Virus record (IMG/VR): IMGVR_UViG_2579778856_000001
Reading direction: 5' to 3' (one strand)
Length of the DNA stretch: 12,065 bases
Source: a virus
Lineage: Duplodnaviria; Heunggongvirae; Uroviricota; Caudoviricetes
Of the stretch, positions 221 through 12,065 are shown piece by piece. Under the pieces are notes generated by a model. That model was given only the letters and a program-made list of their open reading frames with translations, was not told where the DNA came from and ran no database searches. Position 1 is the first letter of the stretch, and each line of letters opens with the position of its first letter. Position numbers and translations under genes: made by a program.

Positions 221-395
221 CGGCGGTCAGTTTACGCTTACGTCCCTTCTGGTCAAAATGGACGAAGAAATGCTCTGCTTCTTCGACAGCAACGGGCGAA
301 CCACCATGCCCCGTAAAGCTTTCTCCCTGCGTACTGGCGTAACCCGCCGCCAGCTGTTTCCAGACGCCATTTACTTCATTGAACGGGAGTTCTGA
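210..395 (+). pseudogene. Probable C-terminal remnant of the gene that preceded the radC-like gene, cut off by the IS insertion
   Basis: 61-codon ORF whose ATG lies at the predicted IS boundary. The frame only opens at 192 (TAA at 189-191). Its TGA (393-395) sits one base before the radC-like ATG (397), the tight coupling expected of the original operon partner. No recognisable domain. In CP4-type islands the gene upstream of radC-like is usually an antirestriction (KlcA/ArdB-like) or YeeR-like gene; that is inference only. Confidence 0.25.
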
Positions 396-396
396 C

Positions 397-849
397 ATGA
401 CCATGTTTACCCAGCGTGAAACCCGTATCCTTGACCAGGCGCGTGACATTATTAGCCGGTACTACCAGCGTGGGGTTCAACTCTGTTCCCCTGATGATGT
501 TCGACGGTGCGTGATGGTTGAGCTGGCACCGCTTGAACATGAAGAGTTTGGCATCATCCTACTCGATAATCATAATCAGCTGCTGCACCGCGAAATCCTG
601 TTCAGGGGTACGCTAAACTCGGTCAGCGTTCACCCCCGTGAAGTTATTAAGCGTGTGCTGAAACATAACGCCGCCGCCGTCATCCTTGTCCATAATCACC
701 CCAGCGGCGAGCCTGAACCCAGCCGGTGTGACATCCAGTTGACCAAAAAGCTTCAGGAGCTGCTGGAAATACTGGATGTGCGGTTACTTGATCACTTTAT
801 CGTGGCAGGAACTGAAACGGTGTCGATGGCTGAGCGAGGACTGGTGTGA
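397..849 (+). CDS. RadC-like JAB/JAMM-domain protein (DUF2466; YeeS/YfjY/YkfG-type of CP4 cryptic prophages)
   Basis: Translation MTMFTQRETRILDQARDI...HPREVIKRVLKHNAAAVILVHNHPSGEPEPSRCDIQLTKKL contains the complete JAMM signature H-x-H-x7-S-x2-D (HNHPSGEPEPSRCD) and the HPREV motif of the RadC family. The ORF track's TTG start at 379 is less likely than ATG 397 or 403. Confidence 0.85.
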   Translation: MTMFTQRETRILDQARDIISRYYQRGVQLCSPDDVRRCVMVELAPLEHEEFGIILLDNHNQLLHREILFRGTLNSVSVHPREVIKRVLKHNAAAVILVHNHPSGEPEPSRCDIQLTKKLQELLEILDVRLLDHFIVAGTETVSMAERGLV

Positions 850-895
850 TGCTGAAAGTTACTTGGTTTAATGTACGTTATTGCGGGTTACGCGC

Positions 896-1825
896 ATGAG
901 CAGGACAGCGTTGCGTCAGGTCGTGCCGGTGGTGCAAACCACCGTGTTCGATGCGTATATTGTCGGTCTGGCCCCCTCGGGACGGCGAGGTATCACCAGC
1001 CTGTTAAACCGCAGCGCCAGCATACTTAAACACGGTGCGGATGCAGCAGACTATCCGTGGGAACAACTTAACTACGCCGCCGTTGCCAAAGTGCGCGCGG
1101 CACTGCTGGATGACGGTTACGCCGTGTCATCGGTCAACATGGCGCTGTCAGCACTCCGGGGCGTAGCGCAGACGGCCTTTAACCTCAATTACATGGATGC
1201 CGAAACGCTGGCACGTATCCGGTCAGTTAAGCGCGTGAGCGGCGATGTCCAGCGCAAGGGAAGGGCGCTGGGCAGGCAGGAAATCCGGGTACTGATTCAG
1301 GCTGCAAAACAGCATCCGCAATCTGTACGGCGCTGTCGCGATGTCGCCATTGTGCTGATGCTTTGCGGAACGGGCCTGCGGGCCGGGGAACTGGTTAAAC
1401 TTGAGCGCCGGGACTATGACAACGGCATCCTGACGGTGAGGCAAGGGAAGGGGCGTAAATACCGTGAAATTCACGTGGCGGATGCGGTGGACAAGGCTAT
1501 TCGTGCGTGGCTGAAAGTTGGCGCAGACGAGGCTGACAGTGCGTTGTTTAGGCGAATTCAGCGCAGTGGTAAGGTCGCAAGCCAACCGCTGACTACGACC
1601 GGGTTAACGGGTATCCTGGCTGAGTTACAGCAAACGGCAGGTATAGCACGTTTTACCCCGCATGATATGCGGCGCACCTTCATCACCCGTTTGCTGGAGC
1701 AGGGCGTGGATATCAATACCGTCCGCCAGTTGGCAGGCCACAGCGACATATCCACGACGACGCGCTATGACTGTCGTGGTGATACTATGAAGATCAGTGC
1801 CAGCAAGCGCATCAGATGTTTTTAG
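896..1825 (+). CDS. Tyrosine site-specific recombinase / integrase (small, about 309 aa, XerD-like size)
   Basis: Catalytic-domain signatures are present: LRAGEL (Arg), GKGRKYREI (Lys), HDMRRTF (His-x-x-Arg), GHSDISTTTRY (His ... nucleophilic Tyr). ATG 896 preferred over the track's TTG 881. No N-terminal DUF4102/SAM-like extension typical of P4-type integrases. Confidence 0.85.
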   Translation: MSRTALRQVVPVVQTTVFDAYIVGLAPSGRRGITSLLNRSASILKHGADAADYPWEQLNYAAVAKVRAALLDDGYAVSSVNMALSALRGVAQTAFNLNYMDAETLARIRSVKRVSGDVQRKGRALGRQEIRVLIQAAKQHPQSVRRCRDVAIVLMLCGTGLRAGELVKLERRDYDNGILTVRQGKGRKYREIHVADAVDKAIRAWLKVGADEADSALFRRIQRSGKVASQPLTTTGLTGILAELQQTAGIARFTPHDMRRTFITRLLEQGVDINTVRQLAGHSDISTTTRYDCRGDTMKISASKRIRCF

Positions 1826-2426
1826 CAGTTGAGGCGTTGCCAGACTCGGTTTCAGTTTCATCTTCAGCACTCAACCGCGCGTACTTTTGATTCTGGATGT
1901 TAATTTGTGCATTGATATTTTCAGGCTGAAGCATCCACGCAACATCCTCACGCGCCCATTCTTTACCGTCAGAGAGTCGTTTTAACCGGGGTTTCCATAT
2001 TCCATACTCATTAAGTTTTTCTGCTACCGAAGCATATTTCTCACGATCTGACTCCCCCGTATGAAGCTTGTCAAAACGACCTTTTACAAGCTGGTAAACA
2101 GTATAGATTTCCAGTGCCTTAGGGGACCTGGCCGGGACTATCATGGGGTGTTCCTCCGGCCTATAAATCCCGTTTGGCTCTCCCTCATTGAGCAGGTCAT
2201 TAAACATGTGGTTCACGCAGGCACTCAGCACATCTGCCGCTTTCTCCGCAGCGAATTTATCCGGGCTAAAACCCGCTCCCGTCAGTTTCCGGGCAATCAG
2301 TGCCAGTTTTTGCCGGGTATCCCGTCCCAGATAAAGCTTCTTCTCCAGAAATTCAAAGACCTCGTTACTGCTTTTCCGTTCCCGGTGGCATCTGGCGTCA
2401 GCCTTGTTGCTTTGGTTACCAATCAT
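1812..2426 (-). CDS. Hypothetical protein (204 aa), convergent with the integrase and divergent from alpA; candidate island repressor or accessory gene (the position yfjH occupies in CP4-57)
   Basis: Long minus-strand ORF. The second ATG (2426) is preceded by GGAGGTGA with a 4-nt spacer (minus strand reads ATGGAGGTGACTATGATTGG). Predicted product MIGNQSNKADARCHRERKSSNEVFEFLEKKLYLGRD... is mostly helical and acidic at the C-terminus, with no domain I can name. Its 3' end overlaps the int stop by about 14 bp. Confidence 0.6.
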   Translation of the reverse strand: MIGNQSNKADARCHRERKSSNEVFEFLEKKLYLGRDTRQKLALIARKLTGAGFSPDKFAAEKAADVLSACVNHMFNDLLNEGEPNGIYRPEEHPMIVPARSPKALEIYTVYQLVKGRFDKLHTGESDREKYASVAEKLNEYGIWKPRLKRLSDGKEWAREDVAWMLQPENINAQINIQNQKYARLSAEDETETESGNASTAKNI

Positions 2427-2445
2427 AGTCACCTCCATGACAGTG

Positions 2446-2457
2446 TTTTGTACAAAA
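2446..2457. promoter_or_regulatory. Perfect 12-bp palindrome TTTTGTACAAAA, 20 bp upstream of the 204-aa gene start, in the divergent int-side/alpA-side control region
   Basis: Read directly: ...cagtgTTTTGTACAAAAtatcacc... is self-complementary over 12 bp. It sits in the 5' leader/promoter of the minus-strand gene, so it is a candidate operator. Confidence 0.35.
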
Positions 2458-2648
2458 TATCACCATTGAGCCTCAGTGAAAATTGCTTCTTTATATGACC
2501 GTTCTGGAGACAGAAATAGATGATCTCGAATGACATCCACATTAAAGATGCCCTTAACGTGCTCAACGAAGGCATCGTTGAGTGAATCCTTGCGTTTTTT
2601 GGTGGTTGTAAATAACCCGCTCCTGAAACAGCTCAAAGGAGCACAAGC

Positions 2649-2846
2649 ATGAACACCAACCGTATTTTGCGTAAAAAAGAGGTACTTCATCTGACGGGGA
2701 ACTCGTCAGCGACGTTGTACCGACTCATCTCGAAAGGATTCTTTCCTTTGTCAAAGAGGCTAACGGGCGACAATGGCCGGGCGGTAGGCTGGCTGGAGAG
2801 TGATATCAATAACTGGGTTAACAGCCGTATGCAGGCGGGAGAATGA
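2649..2846 (+). CDS. alpA: AlpA-family phage transcriptional regulator (MerR-like HTH; P4 Vis / CP4-57 AlpA type)
   Basis: 65 aa: MNTNRILRKKEVLHLTGNSSATLYRLISKGFFPLSKRLTGDNGRAVGWLESDINNWVNSRMQ. Shows the canonical AlpA pattern (L/I)R.xEV..LTG.S.sTiYRli..G.FP....L....VGW.esei..W. AGGAGC lies 7 nt upstream of the ATG. Confidence 0.85.
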   Translation: MNTNRILRKKEVLHLTGNSSATLYRLISKGFFPLSKRLTGDNGRAVGWLESDINNWVNSRMQAGE

Positions 2847-2847
2847 A

Positions 2848-3315
2848 ATGAAAGAGATAAAATCGAAAACCAGTTCTGCGAAAAAAACGCTGGTTCCTTG
2901 GTTCGAAACTATGGGGAAACAGGTTGGTTTATCACAAGAAACGATATCAGCAGTGTTAAAGGAGCAGCGTTTACGGATACGTAAGCTTAACTACGCATCT
3001 GCATATACAGTGTCCAATATTCTCATACAGGATTGCGGCGGGGCCGATGACATGTGGAGCAACTACGCTAAACTGGCGCTTATCCTTGAGCGTTGTAAAT
3101 ACATTCCCTGCGGGAGCAGGGCCTGTGCATATTGTTCTACCGCTCAGCAATTACATTATCAGGGGGTGGATGTAACCGGGGAATACGCTTTATATCAGTT
3201 GCCTGAGTTATTTTTAGATTTTTTAGAAACAAACGACAAAAATTCCTCTTATCATTGGGATTACAATAAGTTAGTTGAGCGGCATGAAGATGCTCAGGCG
3301 AGGTCATTCGGGTAA
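2848..3315 (+). CDS. Hypothetical protein (155 aa), translationally coupled to alpA; Cys-rich patch CKYIPCGSRACAYC
   Basis: ATG 2848 lies 1 nt after the alpA TGA (GAATGAAATGAAA), with GGGAGAA upstream. The track's 2800 start is an in-frame upstream ATG inside alpA and is less likely. The C-x4-C-x4-C-x2-C cluster suggests a possible metal site. No family recognised. Confidence 0.6.
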   Translation: MKEIKSKTSSAKKTLVPWFETMGKQVGLSQETISAVLKEQRLRIRKLNYASAYTVSNILIQDCGGADDMWSNYAKLALILERCKYIPCGSRACAYCSTAQQLHYQGVDVTGEYALYQLPELFLDFLETNDKNSSYHWDYNKLVERHEDAQARSFG

Positions 3316-3347
3316 TAGCCATTTCTGTATGGTGAAAAACTGACATA

Positions 3348-3380
3348 TTACCCTGCCACTGCATTTTGGTGGCAGGGTAA
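3348..3380 (+). promoter_or_regulatory. Perfect 12-bp stem / 9-nt loop hairpin (TTACCCTGCCAC-TGCATTTTG-GTGGCAGGGTAA) between the 155-aa and 284-aa genes; no U-tract
   Basis: Read directly from sequence. There is no T-run after the stem, so it is not a classical intrinsic terminator. The loop plus stem carry CCACTGCATTTT, a 12-mer repeated in the iteron cluster at 4335-4346. Confidence 0.4.
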
Positions 3381-3402
3381 TCAATACAGCTAGGAATATT
3401 AA

Positions 3403-4257
3403 ATGAACGATTCTTATTACTTCAGAACATCTGACCCGGATTACATTCGTCACGCACCGTCAATGCTTGAGATTTTAAGTAAAGCATTCCCCACTATTAT
3501 TACCCAGCAGGAAAGTGAGTATGAACTGCAGCGTCTTAACCATTTACTAAATAAACTGAAAGGCAGCAATCGCTGCTACAACATCATTGCTCAAAAACTA
3601 AGGCAGTGCAGAAACGGATCTCCATGCAACAGTCTTATATGCCCGCATTGCCAGCGGGAACGCATTCTGGCGCAACTGGCTATGTTGCATGTCTTGCCGG
3701 GGAATTCAGCAGAATACGTGGGAGTGGTCCTGTTTTTCAACAAGGATACGCAAACTCCGCCGCCATGGAAGAACATTGGGGCGCTCAGGGCGCAAATCGG
3801 TCGTTATAAGCAGAGGATAAGCCGGGTACTTAACCGCCTGGGGTACGCCGGTCCGGCCACAGGCACCTTCAGTATGATGCGACATATGCCTGATGGCCCA
3901 GAAGAGCGTATTTTCTGGGTTCCACAGTTGTGTTTGTTCCTGCCCAATGACAGTACGTTGATTAAGGGGCTAAAAGCGCATATGTCGCGAAGTGGTGGGG
4001 CATTCATTGATGCATCGACGCTTAACACACCAGTGATCGTGCTCAGGTATAAAGATCCCGCGAGACTGATTTCATGCGCCCTGAATCCAGTCTGGCACAC
4101 AGCAGATTACACACTGACTGATAAAGACGCTCTTGTTAAGTCAAGAATGGAGCTACTGAAAGGCCGGACACTGTTAAAAAGTCTGCTTACCCTGGACTCA
4201 CTCGGAACAGGTGTCGTTTCTTTTTCGTTTGGGCAACCCCCAGGGAAAGTGCACTGA
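3403..4257 (+). CDS. Hypothetical protein (284 aa) with cysteine cluster RQCRNGSPCNSLICPHCQRER; candidate replication/DNA-binding component of the alpA operon
   Basis: ATG 3403 preceded by AGGAATATTAA. Continuous 284-codon ORF in the same orientation as alpA. C-x5-C-x4-C-x2-C resembles a zinc-ribbon. No confident family assignment. Confidence 0.65.
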   Translation: MNDSYYFRTSDPDYIRHAPSMLEILSKAFPTIITQQESEYELQRLNHLLNKLKGSNRCYNIIAQKLRQCRNGSPCNSLICPHCQRERILAQLAMLHVLPGNSAEYVGVVLFFNKDTQTPPPWKNIGALRAQIGRYKQRISRVLNRLGYAGPATGTFSMMRHMPDGPEERIFWVPQLCLFLPNDSTLIKGLKAHMSRSGGAFIDASTLNTPVIVLRYKDPARLISCALNPVWHTADYTLTDKDALVKSRMELLKGRTLLKSLLTLDSLGTGVVSFSFGQPPGKVH

Positions 4258-4272
4258 TTTACCGGTAATGCA

Positions 4273-4404
4273 GCAACTGCAATGCACTTTTGCTGTTGAT
4301 TAAATTGCAGTGGAACGACGAATAACAGCGGCAACCACTGCATTTTCGTTGTTGTAAAACTGCAAAGCTTGCCAGTGATTTTGATGGCGCTGATGCACTT
4401 TAAC
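4273..4404. repeat. Iteron-like direct and inverted repeat cluster (candidate replication origin or regulator binding array)
   Basis: GCAACTGCAATGCACTTTTGCTGTTG (4273-4298), an inverted copy AATTGCAGTGG (4303-4313), GCAACCACTGCATTTTCGTTGTTG (4331-4354), AACTGCAAAG (4358-4367), TGATGCACTTTAAC (4391-4404). Core (A/C)ACTGCA(A/T)T recurs five times. A/T-rich TTTAAC patches follow. Confidence 0.45.
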
Positions 4405-4833
4405 ATTCCAACTGTCTCGATTTTAACGCAACCGTCTGTTTTCTGCAGGGGCTCACGGATGCCTCTGCACACCCGATCCTTACCATCAACTGACGAGTTA
4501 GCGCATCTGTGAGGGCTTTCTGTGTTTCTGTCAGTGAATATTCTACACACAATGGGGGGAGCGGTCAGCGAGCACCATTGCCATTGAGCGCAACGGAGAG
4601 CTTGGGGACATGCAGCACTACGGAGGCTTCATCTCCTTCTCATGTCATTAAACGATACGGCGAACGAGCGCAGCGAGTGAGGGAAGGCGTCAGCCTGAAC
4701 AGGGGGAAAGATTTGCGACCGGAGTGGAGCAAATCATGGGCGGAGCCCATCCTCGCGACTGGGGTTTTGACTTTCGAATTGCCCAGCGTTGAGTTTGGTT
4801 AATGTAGTGAGACGAGGATGCTGAGAGGGGACC

Positions 4834-6231
4834 GTGAGTACTGAAAAGGATTATCCAGTGAAGATCCCTAAGTGGGTTTATGACCGTATTACTGAAATAA
4901 CGGATTATGTCGTGGGGGATACGCAATGGGCTGTTACCCGGCGGCAGACAGTACGGTGGTTCCTGGCTCACATATGGCTGGAAACAGACGATGATGGCTG
5001 GACTATATGCACTGTCCGGGATATCCGTAGCAGCTATGCCAGTCTCCTGGGACAGTGTGAAATTAGTTACCAGGGGGAGTGCTTTATGTCCACGCTAACT
5101 GATTTCCTGCCGACACTTTCGGATATTGAATTTCGTGCAGGAAAAGCGAGCAAAGACCCGGAAAAGCGTAGAGCCAGTGCATGGCGGTTCAACCCCCTGC
5201 TGCCTGTGTGTGATGAGTCTGCCAGGGGTAAGTTAAATCTGGTTGACTTGGATACTGGTGAGTCTGTTAGTTTTAGAGCTCTGCTTCAGGGGAACGGGAA
5301 AGCTCCTGGGCATGCGATAGATGTAGAGAAACGCCAGACGGCCCTAAAACAAACGGAAAAGGACTTCTTGGCCAAAGTTGGGCGGGGGCGCATGAGTATA
5401 CAGTTTGTGAAGGAATTGCGTAGCCGTGAGCCGGATCACTATTACCGCGCAGGAATACGCAGCCTTAACCATCTCTACAATGGCAGGATTGAGGGACAAT
5501 ATGTCACTTACGACCATCATTATCGTCTGACGTTTGGAGGGCGGTATTATGATCAAGCTTTCCAGAATCTGCCCAATGAGTTCAAAGCTAAATTTCGGAC
5601 CGGGTTACTCAACTATGACATCGAAGCGTGCAATCTGGCCTGTCTGAACCATCTGTTCAGACAGTATGACGTCGATTATCGTGTGAAGTCATCGATATAT
5701 AAAACCATGATGGAACATACCGGGCTGACCCGTAAACAGTGCAAACAGATGGTCCATACCACCACCTACAGAATTGGGCGTGTGACTATTGGTGTTAATG
5801 ATGGCCTTGGGGCAAAAGTGTATGGATGGTGCGGTAACAGCAAAAAAAAGGCGCTAAAGATTTTGCGTTGGTGGAACCGTTATATCAGTCCATTGAAATC
5901 TGCGCTTGAGTCATTGCTGGAACGTGTGCATGGCGCACACCGCAAGAGTTGTTCATCACCGCGTAACTATCACAGGTACGCTAATGAAGTCGGATTAATA
6001 CTGGATCTTAATAGTGAGGTGTATCAGCGTGAAAAGACTCACCATCATCAATATGCGCGGAATAAGGCACTGTTGGCGTTTATGATCTGTGGTGTGGAGC
6101 AGGCGTATATCCGTGAGGTTGTCAGTATGAACCCTGGTCGTGTCTGCATGCTGGATCATGATGGGGTAGTGGCAACGGGCGCGCTTTCACTACCGGACTG
6201 GCGTGGTTTCACGATGAAAGTGAAGGACTAG
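4834..6231 (+). CDS. Hypothetical protein (465 aa) occupying the position of yfjI in CP4-57; carries motifs reminiscent of right-hand (PolA/T7-like) polymerase motifs A, B and C
   Basis: GTG 4834 is the first start after the in-frame TGA at 4822, with GAGAGGGG 3 nt upstream. Motif-like segments: LLNYDIEACNLACLNHL (aa 258-274), RKQCKQMVHTTTYRIG (aa 300-315, R-x3-K-x7-Y) and MLDHDG (aa 439-444). Spacings of about 42 and 139 aa are similar to Klenow's D705 / K758 / D882. Whether this is a real polymerase fold is unverified. Confidence 0.7.
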   Translation: MSTEKDYPVKIPKWVYDRITEITDYVVGDTQWAVTRRQTVRWFLAHIWLETDDDGWTICTVRDIRSSYASLLGQCEISYQGECFMSTLTDFLPTLSDIEFRAGKASKDPEKRRASAWRFNPLLPVCDESARGKLNLVDLDTGESVSFRALLQGNGKAPGHAIDVEKRQTALKQTEKDFLAKVGRGRMSIQFVKELRSREPDHYYRAGIRSLNHLYNGRIEGQYVTYDHHYRLTFGGRYYDQAFQNLPNEFKAKFRTGLLNYDIEACNLACLNHLFRQYDVDYRVKSSIYKTMMEHTGLTRKQCKQMVHTTTYRIGRVTIGVNDGLGAKVYGWCGNSKKKALKILRWWNRYISPLKSALESLLERVHGAHRKSCSSPRNYHRYANEVGLILDLNSEVYQREKTHHHQYARNKALLAFMICGVEQAYIREVVSMNPGRVCMLDHDGVVATGALSLPDWRGFTMKVKD

Positions 6232-6298
6232 CTTACTTTCTTGAATTTAACTATCTGCGATCTCTGATAAGGGCGTATTACGTTGTCAATCATAATGG

Positions 6299-6328
6299 GA
6301 TATGCGCATTGGAACGATGTGCATATCC
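6299..6328. repeat. Imperfect 12-bp inverted repeat GGATATGCGCAT-ggaacg-ATGTGCATATCC between the 465-aa gene and the IS30-like end
   Basis: Read directly: 11 of 12 bp complementary, 6-nt spacer, no flanking T-run. Could be a weak terminator, a protein-binding site or part of an eroded att/recombination site. Confidence 0.35.
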
Positions 6329-6355
6329 AGTAAGTGATCCATGTCCGCTTTGAGC

Positions 6356-7050
6356 TGTGAGTTCAACGGGTCGATGCAACGCTGTCCCTAATCAAGGGGG
6401 ACGTTGCCATGAAACGAAGAACTCGTATTAACTACACGCCAGAGCAAAAGGTGATTATTTGGGACAGATATAAGCAAGGTGATTCCCTGCATGATATCCC
6501 CCAGAATGTTCGACAGATTTCACTCTACTATCATGCCTACAATCCACCAGGCCGGTGGCTACCGTCCTCCCGTGCGAAAGCGGCACCGGTTAGCGTTTTC
6601 GCTTGATGAAAAAGAGGAGATATCCAGAGGACTGGTAGCAAAACGCATCATCAGGGACATCGCTGCTAAATTATCAATAGCTCCCTCAACGATTAGCCGC
6701 GAGATCAGGAGGCACGGCGGTGCAAAACAATACCGTGCAGCAAAAGCCGATCCTGCTGCGTGGGAAAATGCTCTGAGACCAAAACCTTGCAAGCTAATTG
6801 AAAGCCCCACATTGTGTAAAATCATTGCAGAGAAGATGCATCAGGACTGGTCGCCGGAACAAATTGGCGGTTGGCTAAAACGCTGTTATCCCGATAATCA
6901 GGAAATGCATGTGTCACATGAAATGATTTATAAAACGCTTTTTATACCAACCCGGGGAGCTTTAAAAAAAGAGCTGCAGCAATGCCTCAGAAGCGGAAGA
7001 GTAGTGCGTAGATCCAAAACCTCATCACTTAAAGTAAACAGAGATACATT
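6356..7050 (+). mobile_element. IS30-family insertion sequence remnant (left IR plus the 5' two-thirds of the transposase gene; 3' end deleted)
   Basis: 6356-6380 TGTGAGTTCAACGGGTCGATGCAAC resembles the IS30 left terminal IR (TGTAGATTCAATTGGTCAACGCAAC, from memory). The transposase start lies about 53 bp inside, as in IS30. Homology to the IS30 transposase stops near aa ...KVNRDT (about 7048), well before the DDE domain. Confidence 0.7.
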
Positions 7051-7090
7051 CTGGTCACGAATGCCCGGTTGTTCGTGCTTTGCGTTTTAA
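6409..7090 (+). pseudogene. IS30-family transposase, frameshifted (in the C5 run near 6500-6505) and C-terminally truncated
   Basis: Frame 1 (6409..) MKRRTRINYTPEQKVIIWDRYKQGDSLHDI matches the IS30 N-terminus pattern MRRTFTAEEKASVFELWKNGTGFSEI. Frame 2 (from about 6489) ...RMFDRFHSTIMPTIHQAGGYRPPVRKRHRLAFSLDEKEEISRGL...WSPEQIGGWLKR...YKTLF... matches the IS30 HTH region (...ERKRAVAHLTLSEREEIRAGL...WSPEQISGWLRR...YKTLY). The switch between frames occurs at atcCCCCCag. The last about 13 codons (FWSRMPGCSCFAF) are non-homologous read-through. Confidence 0.75.
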
Positions 7091-7227
7091 TCGCATTTTA
7101 CAGTTTCTGCCTGCGTGCAGAGGTTGATGGTATTTTCTGAAAAAGCGGCTCGCTTTGCTAATGCATATGGCACAAATACAACAGTTTGTGTCATTCTGAC
7201 CCATCTTTATACCGCGACGGTGGAAAC

Positions 7228-9798
7228 ATGGATGAGCTGCTAACCCTTGGCTGCATTGCTTTATTCTTCGCACTGGTGGTGGTTCCCATCCTCGCGATTA
7301 TCGCGCTCAGCCGCAGCACGGCTGTTCGTTCTGAGCTGGCGACCCTGCGTCGCCGGGTGGAGGTGCTTGAGCAGCGCGGTGTGACTGAAGCACCCGCCAC
7401 AGTGGTAACAACTGTGCCGCAGAGTGTTTCGCAGATGGTTGTGCCTGTTGAAACGTCTTCGCCTGCGGTTAACATCGTGCTGTCGGAGCCTGTGGCTGAT
7501 GTCACGCCTGAGTCCGTTGACCCCTGGCGTCCACAACCGAAGCCGCAAAACGAGGCGCTACCCACACCAGCGGTCGAACAATCTTCCGCTTTTGGTGGGG
7601 TGATGTCGTCCCTGGTGCGCTGGTTTATGCAGGGCAACCCGCTGGCAAAGCTGGGTATTCTGCTTCTCTTCCTTGGCTTCTCCTTCCTGCTGCGTTATAC
7701 GGTTGAACACTCCCTGTTCCCGCTTGAGCTACGTCTGGTGGCGACTTCGCTGTTTGCGATTGCCCTGCTGGTAGTGGGCTGGCGATTGCGGCATAAACAG
7801 CTGGTTTATGCGCTGATCATACAGGGTGGAGCTACGGGGACGCTCTATCTCACCGTTTTTGGCGCATTCTGGCTCTGGCAGATGCTGCCGATGACGCTGG
7901 CGTTTGCATTACTGGTGGCGATTTGCGCGGCGAGCGTGGGACTGGCGATTATGCAAAAAGCGCTCAGCCTCGCGATGCTGGCAAGTATCGGTGGCTATCT
8001 GGCACCGCTGTTGCTTTCCACCGGCGGCGGTAGTCATGTGGCGCTCTTCTCTTTCTACCTTCTGCTTTCCGTCGGTATTCTCGCCATCAGCATCTGGCAA
8101 CACTGGCGCGAGCTTAATCTGCTTGGCCTGTTATTTACCTTTGGTATCGGCGGTCTTTGGGGACTCGACGGCTATCGATCAGAGTATTACCTGAGCAGTC
8201 AGCTTTTCCTGATAGCCAATACGATCATTTTTGGTGTGCTGAGCGTGGCGCTATCGCTACGAGCACAGGAGAAAGGTAAGCAGATTATTGATGGCGTGCT
8301 GTTGTTTGCATCGCCGCTGGTCGGTTTTGGCATGCAGTACGCCATAACCCGGCATATGGAATATGGTCCGGCGCTTAGCGCGCTGGGTTACGGCGGTTTC
8401 TATCTGGCGTTAGCATGGCTTGCATTGCGTCGCTATCCCTCTTTGGGGAGGCCGCTGGTGCTGGCGGCGCTGGCGCTGGGTGGGGCATTTACCACGCTCG
8501 CTATCCCACTGGCGCTTTCGGCCCGCTGGACGGCGATGGCCTGGGCGCTGGAAGGTCTCGGCATCCTCTGGCTGGGCGTGCAACAGCAGCAGCGGCGTAT
8601 GAGCTATAGCGGCACTGCGCTGCTGGTGCTGGCAGTGTGCAGCGCGCTGTGGGCGCAGATGAACGGGATGAGCGCGCTTTCTCTGGTGCTAATCTTTGCC
8701 GTACTCAGCCTCAGCTGGCTGGCTGCCGCCTGGCTGTGGCGCAATATTCAGTTGCAGGGTAGTTGGGTTCTGTTGGCTGGCGGTTTGATCTTCTGGATAA
8801 TCGCGCTCATTGGGGCATCGCAACTGGTGCTGAAAAAGGACTCGCTGGTGCTGTCTGGCGTGCTGGCGTTAATGGCGATATCGGTCTGGGGCTGGCGGAT
8901 TGTCTCTGGTCGTCTGGCCTGGTGGGAGCTGGATGTCAGCAAATGGTTGCTGTGGCCGACGATGCTGGTGATGCTGCTGTCTCAAATTTCACAACATGAG
9001 ATTTTTGCTGCGGGCTGGCAGAATCTGGCCTGGTGTCTGGCGTTACCCGCTGCGGGGGCATTGCTCTGGCGTGATGCTGAGACGTTGCCGCCGCGCCTCT
9101 CCAGACTGGCGCACCTTTCACTCTTCTGGATGATTCTGCTCGCGCTGGCGGCGGAGCTATTCTGGTTTGCGCAAGATCTGCCATGGGGCATGGCGGCGTG
9201 GGGCTCCGGCCTGATGATGGCCGCGGGGGGCCTGCTCATCTTTCTCGTTCATGAGGCGGTTCATCGTCAGCTATGGCCATTCCGAAGCTGGCCCGCACTC
9301 TACGCTTCTCAGGCGATGATACCGGTAGCTGCGGTATTGGTTGTTCTGCTAGTACTGACGAATTTGCAGGATGGCGTAGTTTATCGCCAGACCTGGCTGC
9401 CGCTGGTGAATCCACTGGAGGAGGGGGCCGCTTTTGCGCTACTGGGACTCATTGTATTTTATCGCGTTTCGCAGCGCTTTTTCCCGGTGCAGATTTCGGT
9501 ATGCCGTCCCTGGCCGCTCATTGCACTGCTGGCGCTTAGCTTCTGGTGGCTGAATGGCATCCTGCTGCGCGCATTGGCCTGGTACGGCGAAGTGCCCTGG
9601 AGCGCGGAAACACTGTGGCATTCGCGGCTGATTCAGACCTGTTTTGCCCTGTTCTGGATGCTGGCGGCATTAGTGGTGATGCTACGTGCGACCCGGCGTT
9701 GCTCACGTCGCGAATGGCTTTGTGGATCCGTATTGTTAGGGATTGTTATTGTGAAACTGATGTTGGTAGACAGTGCGCGTGGCGGCGGCCTGGCATGA
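7228..9798 (+). CDS. Large polytopic inner-membrane protein (856 aa). Architecture: N-terminal TM + coiled-coil + Pro-rich linker + more than 20 TM helices, as in DUF2339-family proteins. Probably chromosomal backbone
   Basis: ATG 7228 is preceded by GGTGGAAAC. The track's 7186 start lacks an RBS. Uninterrupted 870-codon frame. Very hydrophobic, L/A/W-rich repeats of predicted TM segments. Visibly higher GC than the flanking island genes. Family call is from recalled architecture only. Confidence 0.75.
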   Translation: MDELLTLGCIALFFALVVVPILAIIALSRSTAVRSELATLRRRVEVLEQRGVTEAPATVVTTVPQSVSQMVVPVETSSPAVNIVLSEPVADVTPESVDPWRPQPKPQNEALPTPAVEQSSAFGGVMSSLVRWFMQGNPLAKLGILLLFLGFSFLLRYTVEHSLFPLELRLVATSLFAIALLVVGWRLRHKQLVYALIIQGGATGTLYLTVFGAFWLWQMLPMTLAFALLVAICAASVGLAIMQKALSLAMLASIGGYLAPLLLSTGGGSHVALFSFYLLLSVGILAISIWQHWRELNLLGLLFTFGIGGLWGLDGYRSEYYLSSQLFLIANTIIFGVLSVALSLRAQEKGKQIIDGVLLFASPLVGFGMQYAITRHMEYGPALSALGYGGFYLALAWLALRRYPSLGRPLVLAALALGGAFTTLAIPLALSARWTAMAWALEGLGILWLGVQQQQRRMSYSGTALLVLAVCSALWAQMNGMSALSLVLIFAVLSLSWLAAAWLWRNIQLQGSWVLLAGGLIFWIIALIGASQLVLKKDSLVLSGVLALMAISVWGWRIVSGRLAWWELDVSKWLLWPTMLVMLLSQISQHEIFAAGWQNLAWCLALPAAGALLWRDAETLPPRLSRLAHLSLFWMILLALAAELFWFAQDLPWGMAAWGSGLMMAAGGLLIFLVHEAVHRQLWPFRSWPALYASQAMIPVAAVLVVLLVLTNLQDGVVYRQTWLPLVNPLEEGAAFALLGLIVFYRVSQRFFPVQISVCRPWPLIALLALSFWWLNGILLRALAWYGEVPWSAETLWHSRLIQTCFALFWMLAALVVMLRATRRCSRREWLCGSVLLGIVIVKLMLVDSARGGGLA

Positions 9799-9918
9799 TC
9801 AGACATGAGATAAATGAAGGGGGATCCGTGAGATAAATAACGAATTGGAGTGGGTTAACATGGGTTCTGGTGAACAGAACTGAAATTCTTTTCCGCTATA
9901 CGATAGATAAGTCGGGCA

Positions 9919-9948
9919 TTGAAATCATCCTTCCTGGCAACTTAGAAT
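9919..9948 (+). promoter_or_regulatory. Sigma70-like promoter TTGAAA-17 bp-TAGAAT upstream of the 53-aa ORF
   Basis: Read directly: TTGAAA (9919-9924), 17-nt spacer, TAGAAT (9943-9948). Predicted TSS about 9955, leaving a roughly 37-nt leader to ATG 9992. Confidence 0.4.
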
Positions 9949-9991
9949 CGAGTTTGCTGAAACATGACCCGCAACAAAAAGGATGATTCCA

Positions 9992-10153
9992 ATGACTACT
10001 CAAAACAATAAGCATGATAGCCTGGATTACTCAGAAAAGCCCAAAAGCAAGCACATCGTGACGTTCGAGCGCGATTCCGGTAGAAAAGGAGAATCGTCTT
10101 CCTCTGCCAATAAAACCACTATGCCGGCAGCCCCTGCCCCAGGGAAAAAATAA
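9992..10153 (+). CDS. Small hydrophilic protein (53 aa; MTTQNNKHDSLDYSEKPKSKHIVTFERDSGRKGESSSSANKTTMPAAPAPGKK); not in the supplied ORF track (below its length cut-off)
   Basis: ATG 9992 has AAGGA 8 nt upstream and the promoter above. K/S-rich, no TM, predicted disordered. Stop TAA 10151-10153 lies 3 nt from the stop of the convergent membrane gene. Confidence 0.4.
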   Translation: MTTQNNKHDSLDYSEKPKSKHIVTFERDSGRKGESSSSANKTTMPAAPAPGKK

Positions 10154-10156
10154 ACA

Positions 10157-10789
10157 TCATTCATCGTTCGTTGCACGAACGCGCCTGATCTCCACTCTGG
10201 CAATCTGATCTGCTGGAATATAGGTTGCCAGAGCTCCCCAGTACTTATCAACCACGCCTTTATACTCTTCCCATTCGTTACTGCCTGAAGGGCTGCTGTG
10301 CGTGACGTAAAGAACCATATCGCCTTTATTCCCCAGGGTAAACGGACCGTTAGGCCACTCTTCAAAGTTCCCTGGCAGCCGTGACATCATACCGGAACCA
10401 TCGCGAAGAATCACTCTGACCTCGGTAACGCTGAAGCCTGTTTGATCAAACATTGCCTGCCATGCTGAGCTGGTATCGTCAGACCATGAAATATCATTAT
10501 TCCACAGTAATCTGTACATCCATTTGCGACCGTACCTGCGCCACCACGCACCGCATGTAAGGGCACACAGAAGTGCTGGTGGTGTTGCCAGCCAGGCATT
10601 CAGACCTGCCCACATAACAGCCTGGTAAGCCATCATTGCTGTCAGGCCAAAAATCAGCGAAGAAAAAGTCACCTCAATGGGCTTGTGGTGATCCTTCAGT
10701 CCCACATTCGCAATAAAATACCCAATATAGCCACTGGTCAGGGTCACCAGTGTTGCCCATGGCAGATTTAACAACGAAACGTCAAACAT
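10157..10789 (-). CDS. Hypothetical membrane protein (210 aa): three N-terminal TM helices plus about 120-aa soluble C-terminal domain
   Basis: Start ATG 10789 (MFDVSLLNLPWATLVTL...) is preceded by GGGAGAAAAT. The track's longer start (10867) would run through the mor terminator hairpin and is rejected. TM segments approximately at aa 8-30, 38-62 and 68-83. The C-terminal domain ...GNKGDMVLYVTHSSPSGSNEWEEYKGVVDKYWGALATYIPADQIARVEIRRV is of unknown family. Confidence 0.65.
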   Translation of the reverse strand: MFDVSLLNLPWATLVTLTSGYIGYFIANVGLKDHHKPIEVTFSSLIFGLTAMMAYQAVMWAGLNAWLATPPALLCALTCGAWWRRYGRKWMYRLLWNNDISWSDDTSSAWQAMFDQTGFSVTEVRVILRDGSGMMSRLPGNFEEWPNGPFTLGNKGDMVLYVTHSSPSGSNEWEEYKGVVDKYWGALATYIPADQIARVEIRRVRATNDE

Positions 10790-10824
10790 ATTTTCTCCCT
10801 GCATCCTGAATACTAAAGAGAGAG

Positions 10825-10866
10825 CATAAAAAAAGCACGGTAAGGGGTCTACCGTGCTTTTATACA
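10825..10866 (-). terminator. Rho-independent terminator of the gemA-mor transcript (hairpin AAAGCACGGTA-AGGGGTC-TACCGTGCTTT; T7 run on the minus strand); partly bidirectional
   Basis: 11-bp perfect stem 10832-10842 / 10850-10860, 7-nt loop. The minus strand continues TTTTTTTAT (complement of 10825-10831). The plus strand continues TTTTATAC. It lies 38 bp downstream of the mor stop. Confidence 0.65.
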
Positions 10867-10903
10867 ATAAGGAGATTTTTGAAAGGACTTTAACAAGCAG
10901 GAA

Positions 10904-11302
10904 TTATCTGGATTTGTTAACGTCTTTCGTCTCCTCTGGCAGATCTTCATCAAACAACCTGCCCTGCATCCGATCCAGTTCTTCTTTTCTGACCCGCTTA
11001 ACCACGCTGTAGACCCACTGAAGCGAAACACCAAACTTGCGGGCCAGTTCGTGGTGGTTGCGTCCGTTAAACTCCCTGAAGATTTCCCGGTCGCGCTGAC
11101 TGACCTTCCATACCATGCCCATCGGGAAATAAACGTTTTGCCCGCCCCAGACCTGCATCATTCGGTTCGCGACGGCCTGACCAATCTGGTCGGCAACTTC
11201 GGGCTCAATATCAATAATCTCGCGAACGGTCTCAGAGGTATGCTGTGCCAGTTCCACCAGGAGTTCCGGCCCCTTACTTCGAAACTGATTCAGGTCGCTC
11301 AT
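10904..11302 (-). CDS. mor: Mor-family transcriptional activator (phage Mu middle-operon regulator / C family), 132 aa
   Basis: MSDLNQFRSKGPELLVELAQHT...VYFPMGMVWKVSQRDREIFREFNGRNHHELARKFGVSLQWVYSVVKRVRKEE. The RDxxIxxxFNGxNxxELAxK(F/Y)G(V/L)Sxxx(V/I)Y C-terminal HTH is characteristic of the Mor/C family. RBS GGAGTCAAAC-ATG. Overlaps the gemA-like 3' end by 29 bp. Confidence 0.75.
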   Translation of the reverse strand: MSDLNQFRSKGPELLVELAQHTSETVREIIDIEPEVADQIGQAVANRMMQVWGGQNVYFPMGMVWKVSQRDREIFREFNGRNHHELARKFGVSLQWVYSVVKRVRKEELDRMQGRLFDEDLPEETKDVNKSR

Positions 11303-11726
11303 GTTTGACTCCCGCAGCTCTGCGCTGCCACTTCTTCAGTTTCTCAATAACACTGCTTGCCTGTTCAGTACTGAGCCAGCGCAGGGCGCTGATGCCCGTT
11401 TCCCGCTTGATCCACCGCGCTAATGCATTTTCTGAACGGTCACGAACAATGCCGGCAGCAGCCATTTCAAGCCATAGCGCACGGATTTTCCTGGACTGCG
11501 GATGGTTATCCAGCGGTAAACCGGAGCTGGCTTTTCCGGCAGGCTTAACGCGAAAGCCTTTCCTTTTCATGGATTCCAGCACGCAGTTTAGTTGTGTGGT
11601 ATCCATTCCTTTGGTTGAGGCTTTACCGGTCAGCCCCTGTAACATCTGGCGGTAGGTGTCTTCATCCATACCCAGTTCATTACGGGCAATATGAATGAGC
11701 TGGATAAGACGTTGTTTAGTCATCAT
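11274..11726 (-). CDS. gemA: Mu gp16/GemA-like protein (DUF1018 family), 150 aa
   Basis: From the ATGATG at 11726, with AGGAG 5 nt upstream: MMTKQRLIQLIHIARNELGMDEDTYRQMLQGLTGKASTKGMDTTQLNCVLESMKRKGF... The N-terminal motif is typical of Mu-like gp16/GemA proteins, as is the location immediately upstream of and overlapping mor. The track's earlier start (11765) is in frame but lacks an RBS. Confidence 0.7.
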   Translation of the reverse strand: MMTKQRLIQLIHIARNELGMDEDTYRQMLQGLTGKASTKGMDTTQLNCVLESMKRKGFRVKPAGKASSGLPLDNHPQSRKIRALWLEMAAAGIVRDRSENALARWIKRETGISALRWLSTEQASSVIEKLKKWQRRAAGVKHERPESVSK

Positions 11727-12065
11727 CGTTGCTCCTTTTACCTGCGCCACCGATATAATCGACATATAAAGGAAGCGCCACAGGCCAGCACAGGAACATC
11801 ACCGACCAGCTAATCCAGTAGCCAGCACCACTGTAACGTGAATAAAACCCTGAACGGCGGTGCAGTTCAGCAGTACACCAACCGACAAAACAATACCAGA
11901 ACAGGGCACATACAACAGATTCAGCCGTCATTCTGAATATCCCCCCAACTGATATGAATATTACGGGCAGCAATGACAGGGTCGTTATTCCACCATGCAC
12001 CTGACATGTATTTTTCAACCTGTTCGCGTCCGGCAATAACACCAATTGTGATCCCCGGCCTGACG
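11716..12065 (-). CDS. Hypothetical small membrane protein, partial (frame open to the window end); its 3' end overlaps the gemA-like start
   Basis: Minus-strand frame is open from the window edge (12065) to TAA at 11716-11718. Predicted product has two hydrophobic segments (LSLLPVIFISVGGIF, VVCALFWYCFVGWCTA) and an acidic tail. The internal TTG/GTG start at 12045/12042 is uncertain. Confidence 0.4.
   Translation of the reverse strand, partial: SGRGSQLVLLPDANRLKNTCQVHGGITTLSLLPVIFISVGGIFRMTAESVVCALFWYCFVGWCTAELHRRSGFYSRYSGAGYWISWSVMFLCWPVALPLYVDYIGGAGKRSNDDD

Follow-up and report, generated by a model that had tools for sequence, protein, structure and literature searches.

Minimal, nuclease-free polymerases of family A, often encoded beside an integrase and predicted to act as primase-polymerases, have been described in mobile elements under the name TV-Pol (Iyer, Abhiman and Aravind 2008, PMC2579912). 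For one TV-Pol member, the CcPol protein of SCCmec, primase activity in combination with the partner MP has been proven (PMC7581432, PMC10061031). Pipolins are integrative elements that encode a primer-independent polymerase, piPolB, together with tyrosine (Xer-like) recombinases, and serve as reservoirs of defence genes (PMC11551731). The locus considered here lies in a stretch of 12,065 nucleotides (nt) from the IMG/VR virus record IMGVR_UViG_2579778856_000001, referred to below as the window. Positions 379-6231 of the window are a conserved backbone of Enterobacterales integrative islands that serve as platforms for anti-phage defence cargo. What is new, in our opinion, is that the AlpA-controlled replication slot of such an island holds a highly divergent, unannotated family-A polymerase, the product of the open reading frame (ORF) ORF465 (465 amino acids, aa), together with a dedicated conserved upstream element. 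The closest mechanistic relatives of the island are TV-Pol and CcPol elements, and its closest conceptual relatives are the pipolins.

The explanation that we favour, and hold to be reasonably probable, is that of a defence-island backbone with an AlpA-switched polymerase of the family-A TV-Pol type acting at its own origin-like region. In this model, the divergent pair of ORF204 and AlpA would form a regulatory switch, and transcription driven by AlpA would lead to the production of accessory proteins of the ORF284 type. Next would come a non-coding control region, composed of TGCA boxes, Box A and a leader, followed by the minimal polymerase, which as a primase-polymerase would start nucleic-acid synthesis at the origin-like region, most likely once the island is excised; excision and a rise in copy number are likewise presumed. 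Integration would be the task of a P4-type integrase at the island edge, outside the window, and the Xer-like recombinase Int309 would act as an accessory second recombinase.

Calling of ORFs gives Int, a convergent 204-aa gene, alpA and genes of 155, 284 and 465 aa at the places listed in an initial annotation made from the sequence alone, which had also held that the four anonymous proteins match no family. Indeed, ORF204, ORF155, ORF284 and ORF465 are labelled "hypothetical proteins" in RefSeq, none of them has a significant match in Pfam, PHROGs, NCBIfam or PADLOC, and only Int and AlpA match family libraries. The claim does not extend to folds, however: whereas ORF204, ORF155 and ORF284 remain without a family, ORF465 could be identified with the help of an AlphaFold model and sequence profiles. 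Judged from that model, ORF465 is a stripped-down, TV-Pol-like relative of DNA polymerase I and the T7-type polymerases. It consists of an N-terminal domain of ~215 aa, predicted to be mixed alpha/beta and winged-helix-like, and of a C-terminal palm, fingers and thumb (aa ~215-465); its true start is probably a GTG at 4858, with AAAGGA in front of it.

The close family of ORF465 comprises 78 clusters, all from Enterobacterales, at identities of at least 45%. A profile search of 1.8 billion representative proteins returned 70 matches, the distant ones being 450-590 aa long and sharing residues ~215-465 only; a Pfam scan of ten of these distant relatives detected no domain. Twenty-five sequences, down to 16% identity, could be aligned over the motifs and follow the pattern Y.P.Y...GGR.FE...GFQNLP...K....NYDI..CQL.IL ... 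K......F..G ... LLAH.IQG.E ... LEHDG, with R237, Q244, D262, K304, G420 and E422 as invariant positions and H442-D443 as nearly invariant ones; within the close family, R300 does not vary. Read by eye, these motifs are what we take to be the family-A elements TGR..QNIP, motif A (DYSQIELR), motif B (R..AK..NFG..YG), QGTAAD and motif C (HDE). Comparison with T7 gp5, the T7 DNA polymerase, by hhalign places D262 on D475 and R300/K304 on R518/K522 (P = 6.6e-4). The four best profile matches in the PDB all fall on motif B of Pol theta, at a level that is not significant (E 0.3-0.9). The AlphaFold model has a mean predicted local distance difference test score (pLDDT) of 72.7.

The model of ORF465 displays the catalytic fold of family A (thumb, palm with an RRM core, and fingers), the two metal-binding aspartates of motifs A and C, the beta-hairpin arginine and the R...K pair of the fingers, all of which characterize TV-Pols. 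ORF465 also resembles TV-Pols in falling within the range of 400-600 aa, in the lack of an exonuclease domain, in the possession of an extra N-terminal domain and in its linkage to mobile elements with an adjacent lambda-type integrase; here the linkage is provided by the tyrosine recombinase of the cassette and the P4-type integrase at the island edge, and there is no helicase. It differs from TV-Pols in that its N-terminal domain is predicted to be mixed alpha/beta and winged-helix-like rather than all-helical, in the lack of a D5-like helicase, in its placement under AlpA control in an enterobacterial island, and in the conserved promoter-like element upstream. With the CcPol-MP system of SCCmec it shares an A-family polymerase domain in an integrative island, an operon with small partners near site-specific recombinases, and the occupation of a slot in which related islands have a conventional primase. 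Unlike in that system, neither an OB-fold single-stranded DNA-binding (SSB) partner nor a Cch-type helicase was recognised, the recombinases are tyrosine rather than large serine recombinases, the host is Gram-negative, and for the small partners, the Cys-cluster proteins ORF155 and ORF284, a ferredoxin-like core is predicted with low confidence.

Relatives of ORF465 extend to phages. Jumbo phages of Erwinia, Dickeya and Yersinia encode "hypothetical proteins" of ~500-550 aa that are related to it in sequence and structure (Foldseek E 8e-10, template modelling score 0.55; tblastn with the relative P0087 down to 1e-39); carriers include Erwinia phage Alexandra, gene 224 (locus L010, 5944-7521; loci are denoted by L numbers), and 56 other phage records. 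The Alexandra gene is preceded by a non-coding gap of ~500 nt, in which no obvious motif was seen by eye. Further distant relatives occur in phage-like contigs beside HNH, T4_Y16D or UvrD genes (L187, L188).

The second line of evidence is the conservation of the cassette. Relatives were found by scanning one genome per species with the ORF465 family and by looking up individual homologues. The same gene order was found in Cedecea, Edaphovirga, Yersinia similis, Serratia, Budvicia, another enterobacterium, E. coli H6 (a 91% variant) and metagenomes, and the cassette is present in L002-L006, L011, L013-L016 and L185. Since the same order recurs in at least 10 independent loci, as a unit beside different flanks, the cassette is a conserved arrangement and not a chance one. 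Its constant core is the ORF204-like gene divergent from alpA, alpA itself, and a non-coding region followed by the polymerase. The arrangement can be traced as far as L185, in which the polymerase (P0089) is only 25% identical to ORF465, in the C-terminal half only, and the order is DUF2787, RadC, Int (58%), a 232-aa minus-strand gene (27% to ORF204), AlpA (62%), a 381-aa gene, a 388-nt gap, the polymerase and a type I restriction-modification system.

The genes upstream of the cassette are equally conserved: a 175-aa gene, HTH_35, a 162-aa gene, DUF2787, a 153-aa gene and RadC. Most of the backbone genes had no match in scans against the family libraries, HTH_35 and DUF2787 being the only ones recognised. 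In L001-L004, L011 and L185, RadC directly precedes the Xer-like int, and in L012 an IS110 element separates the two. A separate P4-type integrase marks the island edge, adjoining ychF in E. coli, Y. similis and Serratia and yicC in L014. The islands span 9-27 kb, L014 being a compact one of ~9.4 kb. Defence cargo is present on both sides of the backbone and varies: Hachiman, a TerB/helicase set, genes for an OLD-type ATPase and a UvrD helicase, and type I restriction-modification were found.

These data bear on the proposal of the initial annotation that positions 896-6355 are an autonomous small integrative or satellite element, similar to phage-inducible chromosomal islands (PICIs) or P4, with Int309 as its own integrase. 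The order of int, a divergent gene, alpA and a replication-type operon is indeed that of the left end of PICIs and CP4-57; the order RadC, int, minus-strand gene, alpA and replication gene is the one expected across the joined ends of a CP4-57-type element; and even the distant L185 retains an Int309 that is 58% identical. Yet the upstream backbone is conserved together with the cassette, RadC ends 46 nt before int, Int309 is absent from L006, L007, L013, L014 and L016 while the P4-type integrase marks the edge, and the cassette was never found alone between host genes. Scans against PHROGs and Pfam detected no packaging or capsid-redirecting genes: the hallmarks of P4 and PICIs (terS, ppi, cpm, psu/delta/sid, cos) had no match in the window or among the backbone proteins, although divergent versions are possible. 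The satellite assignment was thus not borne out, and an autonomous element of this kind appears very improbable. Because the upstream genes are equally conserved, the P4-type integrase lies at the edge and Int309 is missing from several relatives, the 5.5-kb stretch is a part of the backbone and not a stand-alone element. What stands of the original proposal is that a divergent regulator/alpA switch, followed by a replicon-like operon, forms the core of a mobile integrative element situated beside defence genes.

The suggested synteny with CP4-57 holds for the architecture but for few of the proteins. The order and orientation of int, the divergent gene, alpA and the replication operon, the P4-type integrase at the island edge and the defence cargo are shared with CP4-57, P4-like elements and PICIs, and the module order of PICIs and P4 (int, divergent repressor, alpA, replication module) is found here with a replication module of a different type, the primase-helicase being replaced by a PolA-type polymerase. 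In comparisons by BLASTP and family hidden Markov models (HMMs), AlpA (E 2e-9, 34% identity) and RadC/LfgB (E 1e-41, 44%) have homologues in CP4-57. Homology beyond these two was rejected, as YfjH, YfjI (DUF3987) and IntA have no significant similarity to ORF204, ORF465 and Int309, respectively.

The sister island L012 (E. coli VREC0864) provides a separate argument. It has the same backbone, with Int309 at 90% nucleotide identity, AlpA and an ORF284 homologue (E 3e-35), and the slot of the polymerase is held by a DUF927-domain protein instead. DUF927 is a family associated with the primase-helicases of P4-like elements. The replacement of the polymerase by this protein supports a role of the slot in replication or priming. 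The swap of non-homologous genes at one position is the argument for functional equivalence used by Iyer et al. (PMC2579912).

The composition of the interval between alpA and the polymerase is more variable. The window has ORF155 and ORF284 there; L003-L006 have two or three full-length ORF284 paralogues in place of ORF155; L007, L013 and L014 have no gene; and L185 has the unrelated 381-aa gene. Neither ORF155 nor the ORF284 family found anything in a PDB search. In ORF284, the Cys cluster C69, C75, C80, C83 and residues Y105, G154, H161 and W231 are invariant, and the predicted core is beta-alpha-beta-beta-alpha; the structural model is poor (pLDDT 43), and its generic fold matches hint at a ferredoxin-like core and not at an OB fold. 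The ORF284-family HMM matches ORF155 at E 2.8e-4 and its orthologues in L002 and L011 at 3.7e-5, which points to ORF155 as a weak, short and divergent ORF284 paralogue. ORF155 is 55-58% conserved in Cedecea versus 91-95% for its neighbours. ORF284 is a putative accessory protein of the replication slot.

The 309-aa integrase of the initial annotation is a tyrosine recombinase. Its best NCBIfam matches are XerC, XerA and XerD, all below cut-offs, and relatives 58-91% identical to it occur in L002-L004, L012 and L185. Since otherwise complete relatives (L006, L007, L013, L014, L016) lack it, Int309 is accessory, a second recombinase internal to the island, which may resolve the excised circle or be the relic of an integrase. 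Where pipolins already have a large recombinase, extra resolvase-like serine recombinases were taken as a sign of circular replicating intermediates (PMC11551731). Like pipolins, the islands described here are integrative, polymerase-encoding defence platforms that bear Xer-type recombinases; unlike in pipolins, the polymerase is of family A and not of family B, the backbone consists of AlpA, RadC, DUF2787 and HTH_35, and integration takes place beside ychF or yicC through a P4-type integrase. AlpA is 34% identical to its K-12 namesake, and its PHROG match is described as "excisionase and transcriptional regulator". ORF204, for which a PDB sequence search returned nothing, has homologues divergently upstream of alpA in L002, L006, L011-L016 and L185 (E 1e-129 to 8e-6); by its position, it may repress or otherwise regulate the switch. 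In the three islands without ORF284 (L007 9627-9655, L013 7667-7693, L014 7659-7684), the alpA stop is followed by a perfect AT-rich palindrome (TTTTCCATTTTTAAAAATGGAAAA), which could be a terminator or an operator.

The third line of evidence is the non-coding region in front of the polymerase. In loci with ORF284 the gap measures 530-610 nt (the window, L002-L006, L011) or ~670 nt (L016), and in loci without ORF284 it measures ~350 nt after alpA. Some blocks within the gap do not vary between islands, although the flanking proteins of these are just 40-60% identical. Box A (GAATATTCTACACACAAT/GGGGGGAGCGGTCAGCGAGCACCATTGCCATTGAG) is the sole block common to all polymerase-carrying enterobacterial islands, including L007, L013 and L014; its identity in 60-nt windows (0.72-0.78) equals that of the best parts of the polymerase gene and exceeds that of all of ORF284. 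A position weight matrix (PWM) of the motif, which is ~26 nt long, finds exactly one plus-strand site per island, at a distance of 178-360 nt before the start of the polymerase, and no site in the DUF927 sister island L012, against an expectation of 0.05 sites per 161 kb. The region is argued to be non-coding because of indels and variation in the length of the G run. An ATG inside Box A (CAATGGGGGG) opens a frame into the polymerase in some relatives (L003/L004 9701-11371; P0055, P0064), giving predicted proteins of 521-556 aa that are extended at the N-terminus; in the window this frame stops after 11 codons.

The iteron array of the initial annotation proved not to be a tandem array, as Tandem Repeats Finder detected no arrays in the window; what exists is a cluster of TGCA boxes. 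The sequence TGCAYTTT occurs 6 times in the window versus 1.63 expected, four of the six copies falling within the cluster, and the boxes are invariant columns in a seven-locus alignment. The cluster is likely what had been noted as iterons, and is predicted to be an operator or an origin-binding site. More cautiously put, Box A and the TGCA boxes together make up a conserved cis-acting region, for control or as an origin, that is tied to the polymerase; the hypothesis that goes further is that Box A is the initiation site of ORF465. Box B (CGAACGAGCGCAGCGAGTGAGGGAAGGCGTCAGCC) is invariant in the window, L002-L006, L011 and L016 and absent from L007, L013 and L014. Two small hairpins follow it, in which compensatory changes could be seen by eye (in the second hairpin, T-A to G-C in L003-L005; in the first hairpin, one change at the outer pair). 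RNAalifold gave weak support for the leader (covariation term +0.66), and no RNA structure is claimed; a search of the gap against Rfam, at gathering thresholds and at E <= 10, returned nothing credible.

The layout of Box A, with an AT-rich upstream part, the core CTACAC(A/T)C(A/T)AT and a G run, recalls promoters of T7-class RNA polymerases, which are continuous, about 23 bp long and start with G; in those of T7, K11 and SP6, an AT-rich part, a CAC(T/A)AT core and a G-run start are found. It could therefore be asked whether ORF465 is a minimal promoter-specific RNA polymerase, or a transcription-type primase, that starts at the G run of Box A and makes a leader RNA of ~180-360 nt together with its own mRNA, as an autogene would; the leader may also serve as a replication primer, as happens in mitochondria and at the primary origin of T7. 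The continuous motif, present once per island and always on the polymerase strand, is consistent with this. A PWM built from 10 annotated T7 promoters ranks Box A 1st to 4th of 24,000-75,000 positions in 5 loci, the top rank being reached in L013 (TTTTACTACTCACTATGGGG, a match to TAATACGACTCACTATAGGG); in 5 others, however, it ranks 19th-117th, the scores are just about -3 to 13 bits, and the resemblance was spotted after the fact. The steric-gate glutamate of PolA-type DNA polymerases aligns with N267 of ORF465, five residues after the aspartate of motif A, and the position is occupied by N, S, C, Q, H or F across the superfamily and never by Glu; in T7 DNA polymerase the residue is E480. On the other side, comparison with T7 RNA polymerase by hhalign was negative (probability 0.1%), and Y312, the equivalent of Y639 in T7 RNA polymerase, is not conserved. 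ORF465 is about half the size of T7-class RNA polymerases, too small for their promoter-binding N-terminal domain and specificity loop, neither of which is recognisable, and in sequence and fold it is nearer to DNA polymerases. There is one motif copy per island, and the motif was not found upstream of the distant L185 homologue. Taken together, these points make an RNA polymerase an improbable though not negligible alternative. About equally doubtful is the more specific proposal that the ORF465 family comprises the smallest promoter-directed members of the PolA/T7 superfamily (~455 aa), in which the N-terminal winged helix would recognise Box A, synthesis would start de novo at the G run, and the resulting leader RNA or primer would both express the enzyme and fire the origin. 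Were it so, the island would be a family-A counterpart of the pipolins with self-contained initiation orthogonal to the host.

The same upstream region invites another interpretation, namely that it forms, together with the polymerase, an anti-phage defence system with retron- or DRT-like synthesis from a dedicated template, and that neither is replication machinery. The region is conserved, looks structured and lies directly upstream of the polymerase gene; defence systems stand immediately beside the polymerase in every island; relatives occur in jumbo phages, like those of many defence-related genes; and a defence role was raised for PolA-SSB primases by Rice (PMC10061031). Against this, the PADLOC scan gave no match, the covariation support for an RNA structure is weak, the polymerase gene belongs to the invariant backbone under AlpA and not to the variable cargo positions, and its slot is held by the DUF927 protein in L012. 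We regard a defence system as unlikely.

It should be noted that several observations weigh against the primase-polymerase model that we prefer. The hhalign probability for T7 DNA polymerase is only 27%, and the AlphaFold model, built from 23 fairly close sequences, is of medium quality (predicted template modelling score 0.50). ORF465 is filed as TV-Pol-like by shared features, and a sequence link to bona fide TV-Pols, such as Sputnik V13, CcPol and Ma-LMM01, is not established, Pfam giving no match. Nothing in the cassette was recognised as a gene for a helicase, an SSB or another replication protein, no direct or att repeats were found at the ends of the compact island L014, and no excised or episomal form was observed. 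Moreover, most ST131 genomes have ORF465 in two parts, with ISEc52 inserted at window positions 5779-5785 (a 7-bp overlap between two BLAST pieces), with an additional ISEc23 in some, the window representing the uninterrupted allele. The polymerase is thus dispensable for the host and for keeping the island.

The cassette is present in about one in nine complete E. coli genomes, in which it is annotated solely as hypothetical proteins, and with the polymerase identified, an anonymous island becomes an element whose self-priming or self-replication can be tested. If the primase-polymerase model is true, the island provides a family-A parallel to the piPolB-encoding pipolins and to the CcPol primase of SCCmec, and the polymerase slot may account for the amplification or transfer of a widespread Enterobacterales platform for defence genes. 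The little-studied TV-Pol-like polymerases are extended into Gram-negative pathogens and jumbo phages by a very small enzyme with a candidate cognate initiation site, which, if confirmed, would bear on the origin of primases and RNA polymerases from DNA polymerases and could offer a compact orthogonal tool for expression or priming. Coordinates of the features are listed in Table 1.

Table 1. Genes and non-coding features of the window
Feature	Position	Strand	Remarks
RadC/JAB-domain gene	379-849	+	Pfam RadC 6.7e-46; final gene of the backbone operon, which runs into int
Int309, Xer-like tyrosine recombinase	896-1825	+	309 aa from ATG; Pfam Phage_integrase 1.4e-31
ORF204	1812-2426	-	204 aa; overlaps int stop; divergent from alpA
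ORF204/alpA divergent intergenic region	2439-2648		Presumed control region; 210 nt between the two starts
AlpA-family helix-turn-helix protein	2649-2846	+	Activator/excisionase type; PF05930 2.6e-12
ORF155	2848-3315	+	155 aa; putative short, divergent ORF284 paralogue that keeps the Cys cluster
ORF284	3403-4257	+	284 aa; Cys-cluster protein
TGCA-box cluster	4246-4401		Three direct copies and one inverted copy of TGCAYTTT, with two degenerate ones in addition
Non-coding gap, ORF284 to ORF465	4258-4833		577 nt
Box A	4536-4600	+	Promoter-like/initiation-site motif (predicted); G run from 4554
Box B	4661-4695	+	GCGNAGC mini-hairpin flanked by G.A steps
First small hairpin	4711-4734	+	ATTTGC-N12-GCAAAT; stem conserved, loop varies
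Second small hairpin	4736-4750	+	ATGGGC-GGA-GCCCAT; stem conserved, loop varies
ORF465	4834-6231	+	465 aa; minimal family-A (TV-Pol-like) polymerase, by model
IS30-family remnant	6337-7090	+	Frameshifted; ORFs called 6409-7090; homology to the insertion sequence end from 6337; HTH_38/HTH_32 matches
DUF2339 membrane protein	7186-9798		Downstream of the IS30 remnant
Mu-like phage genes	Right end of window	-	Include Mor and a gp16/GemA-like gene

As to the source of the DNA, positions 242-9795 of the window match, with 100% identity, an island in the chromosome of the pandemic E. coli O25b:H4-ST131, and the island is matched in 614 of 5426 complete E. coli genomes, mostly ST131 (569 with at least 80% of the query). 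In ST131 it lies between dhaR and ychF and also holds a retron Ec67-type reverse transcriptase, an ABC-three-component system and the P4-type integrase adjoining ychF. A scan of the window for tRNA genes found none.

The IS30-family remnant, labelled "transposase, frameshifted, incomplete" in RefSeq, is the right-hand limit of the conserved cassette here and truncates whatever came after ORF465 in this lineage; window positions 6337-6400 have matches in many Klebsiella plasmids. L003-L005 have a conserved 609-aa gene after the polymerase (L003/L004 11387-13216, L005 11557-13212), and some relatives encode a further polymerase paralogue of 483 aa there, highly divergent at 24-26% identity (L006 12215-13666, L003 13435-13914); the 609-aa and 483-aa neighbours have no match in Pfam, NCBIfam or PADLOC. 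The remnant occupies this downstream region in the window lineage, and the original module may therefore be incomplete here. An inverted repeat of 15 nt with 93% complementarity (GGACAGCGTTGCGTC / GATGCAACGCTGTCC) lies at 903-917 and 6373-6387, nearly coinciding with the limits of the initially annotated stretch; its right arm is in the IS30-type end that also matches Klebsiella plasmids, and the repeat may be due to chance or linked to the target choice of IS30.

Both ends of the window depart from the ST131 island. Positions 1-241 have no match to it, and their reverse translation resembles the N-terminus of an IS3-family OrfA (MELQDWRKEPRKNYSNEFKLRMVELASQPGACVAQIARENGVNDNVIFKWLR), an assignment made by eye only. 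Because this segment differs from the ST131 island and reads IS3-like, the strain has an insertion sequence within the 153-aa gene of the backbone that precedes RadC. Positions 9796-12065 are the end of a Mu-like transposable prophage, beginning with TG and inserted in the 3' end of the DUF2339 gene, the product of which has 870 aa here versus 885 aa in ST131 MB1341. Besides Mor and the gp16/GemA-like gene, this end encodes a PHROG 12870 gene. Phage DNA 99.8% identical to it lies beside unrelated genes in other E. coli genomes, as expected under random transposition.

The core of Box B, the 21-mer CGAACGAGCGNAGCGAGTGAG (window 4661-4681), has exact copies in at least 120 metagenome contigs and in 47 IMG/VR viral contigs of very diverse composition. 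A tie between the 21-mer and the polymerase outside the island family was rejected, the polymerase being present in only 2 (L030 and L033) of 167 fetched loci (L017-L183). It has no Rfam family, and no paper was found for the sequence in the literature. A flanking stem of at least 5 pairs accompanies 29 of 165 instances versus 8 in controls; the 21-mer is partly of low complexity, so that its excess over chance is possibly overstated. Some copies are arranged in tandem (every 103 nt in L051), some lie at the tip of long inverted repeats, and some are found just downstream of TTGACA-N17-TATACT in AT-rich phage contigs.

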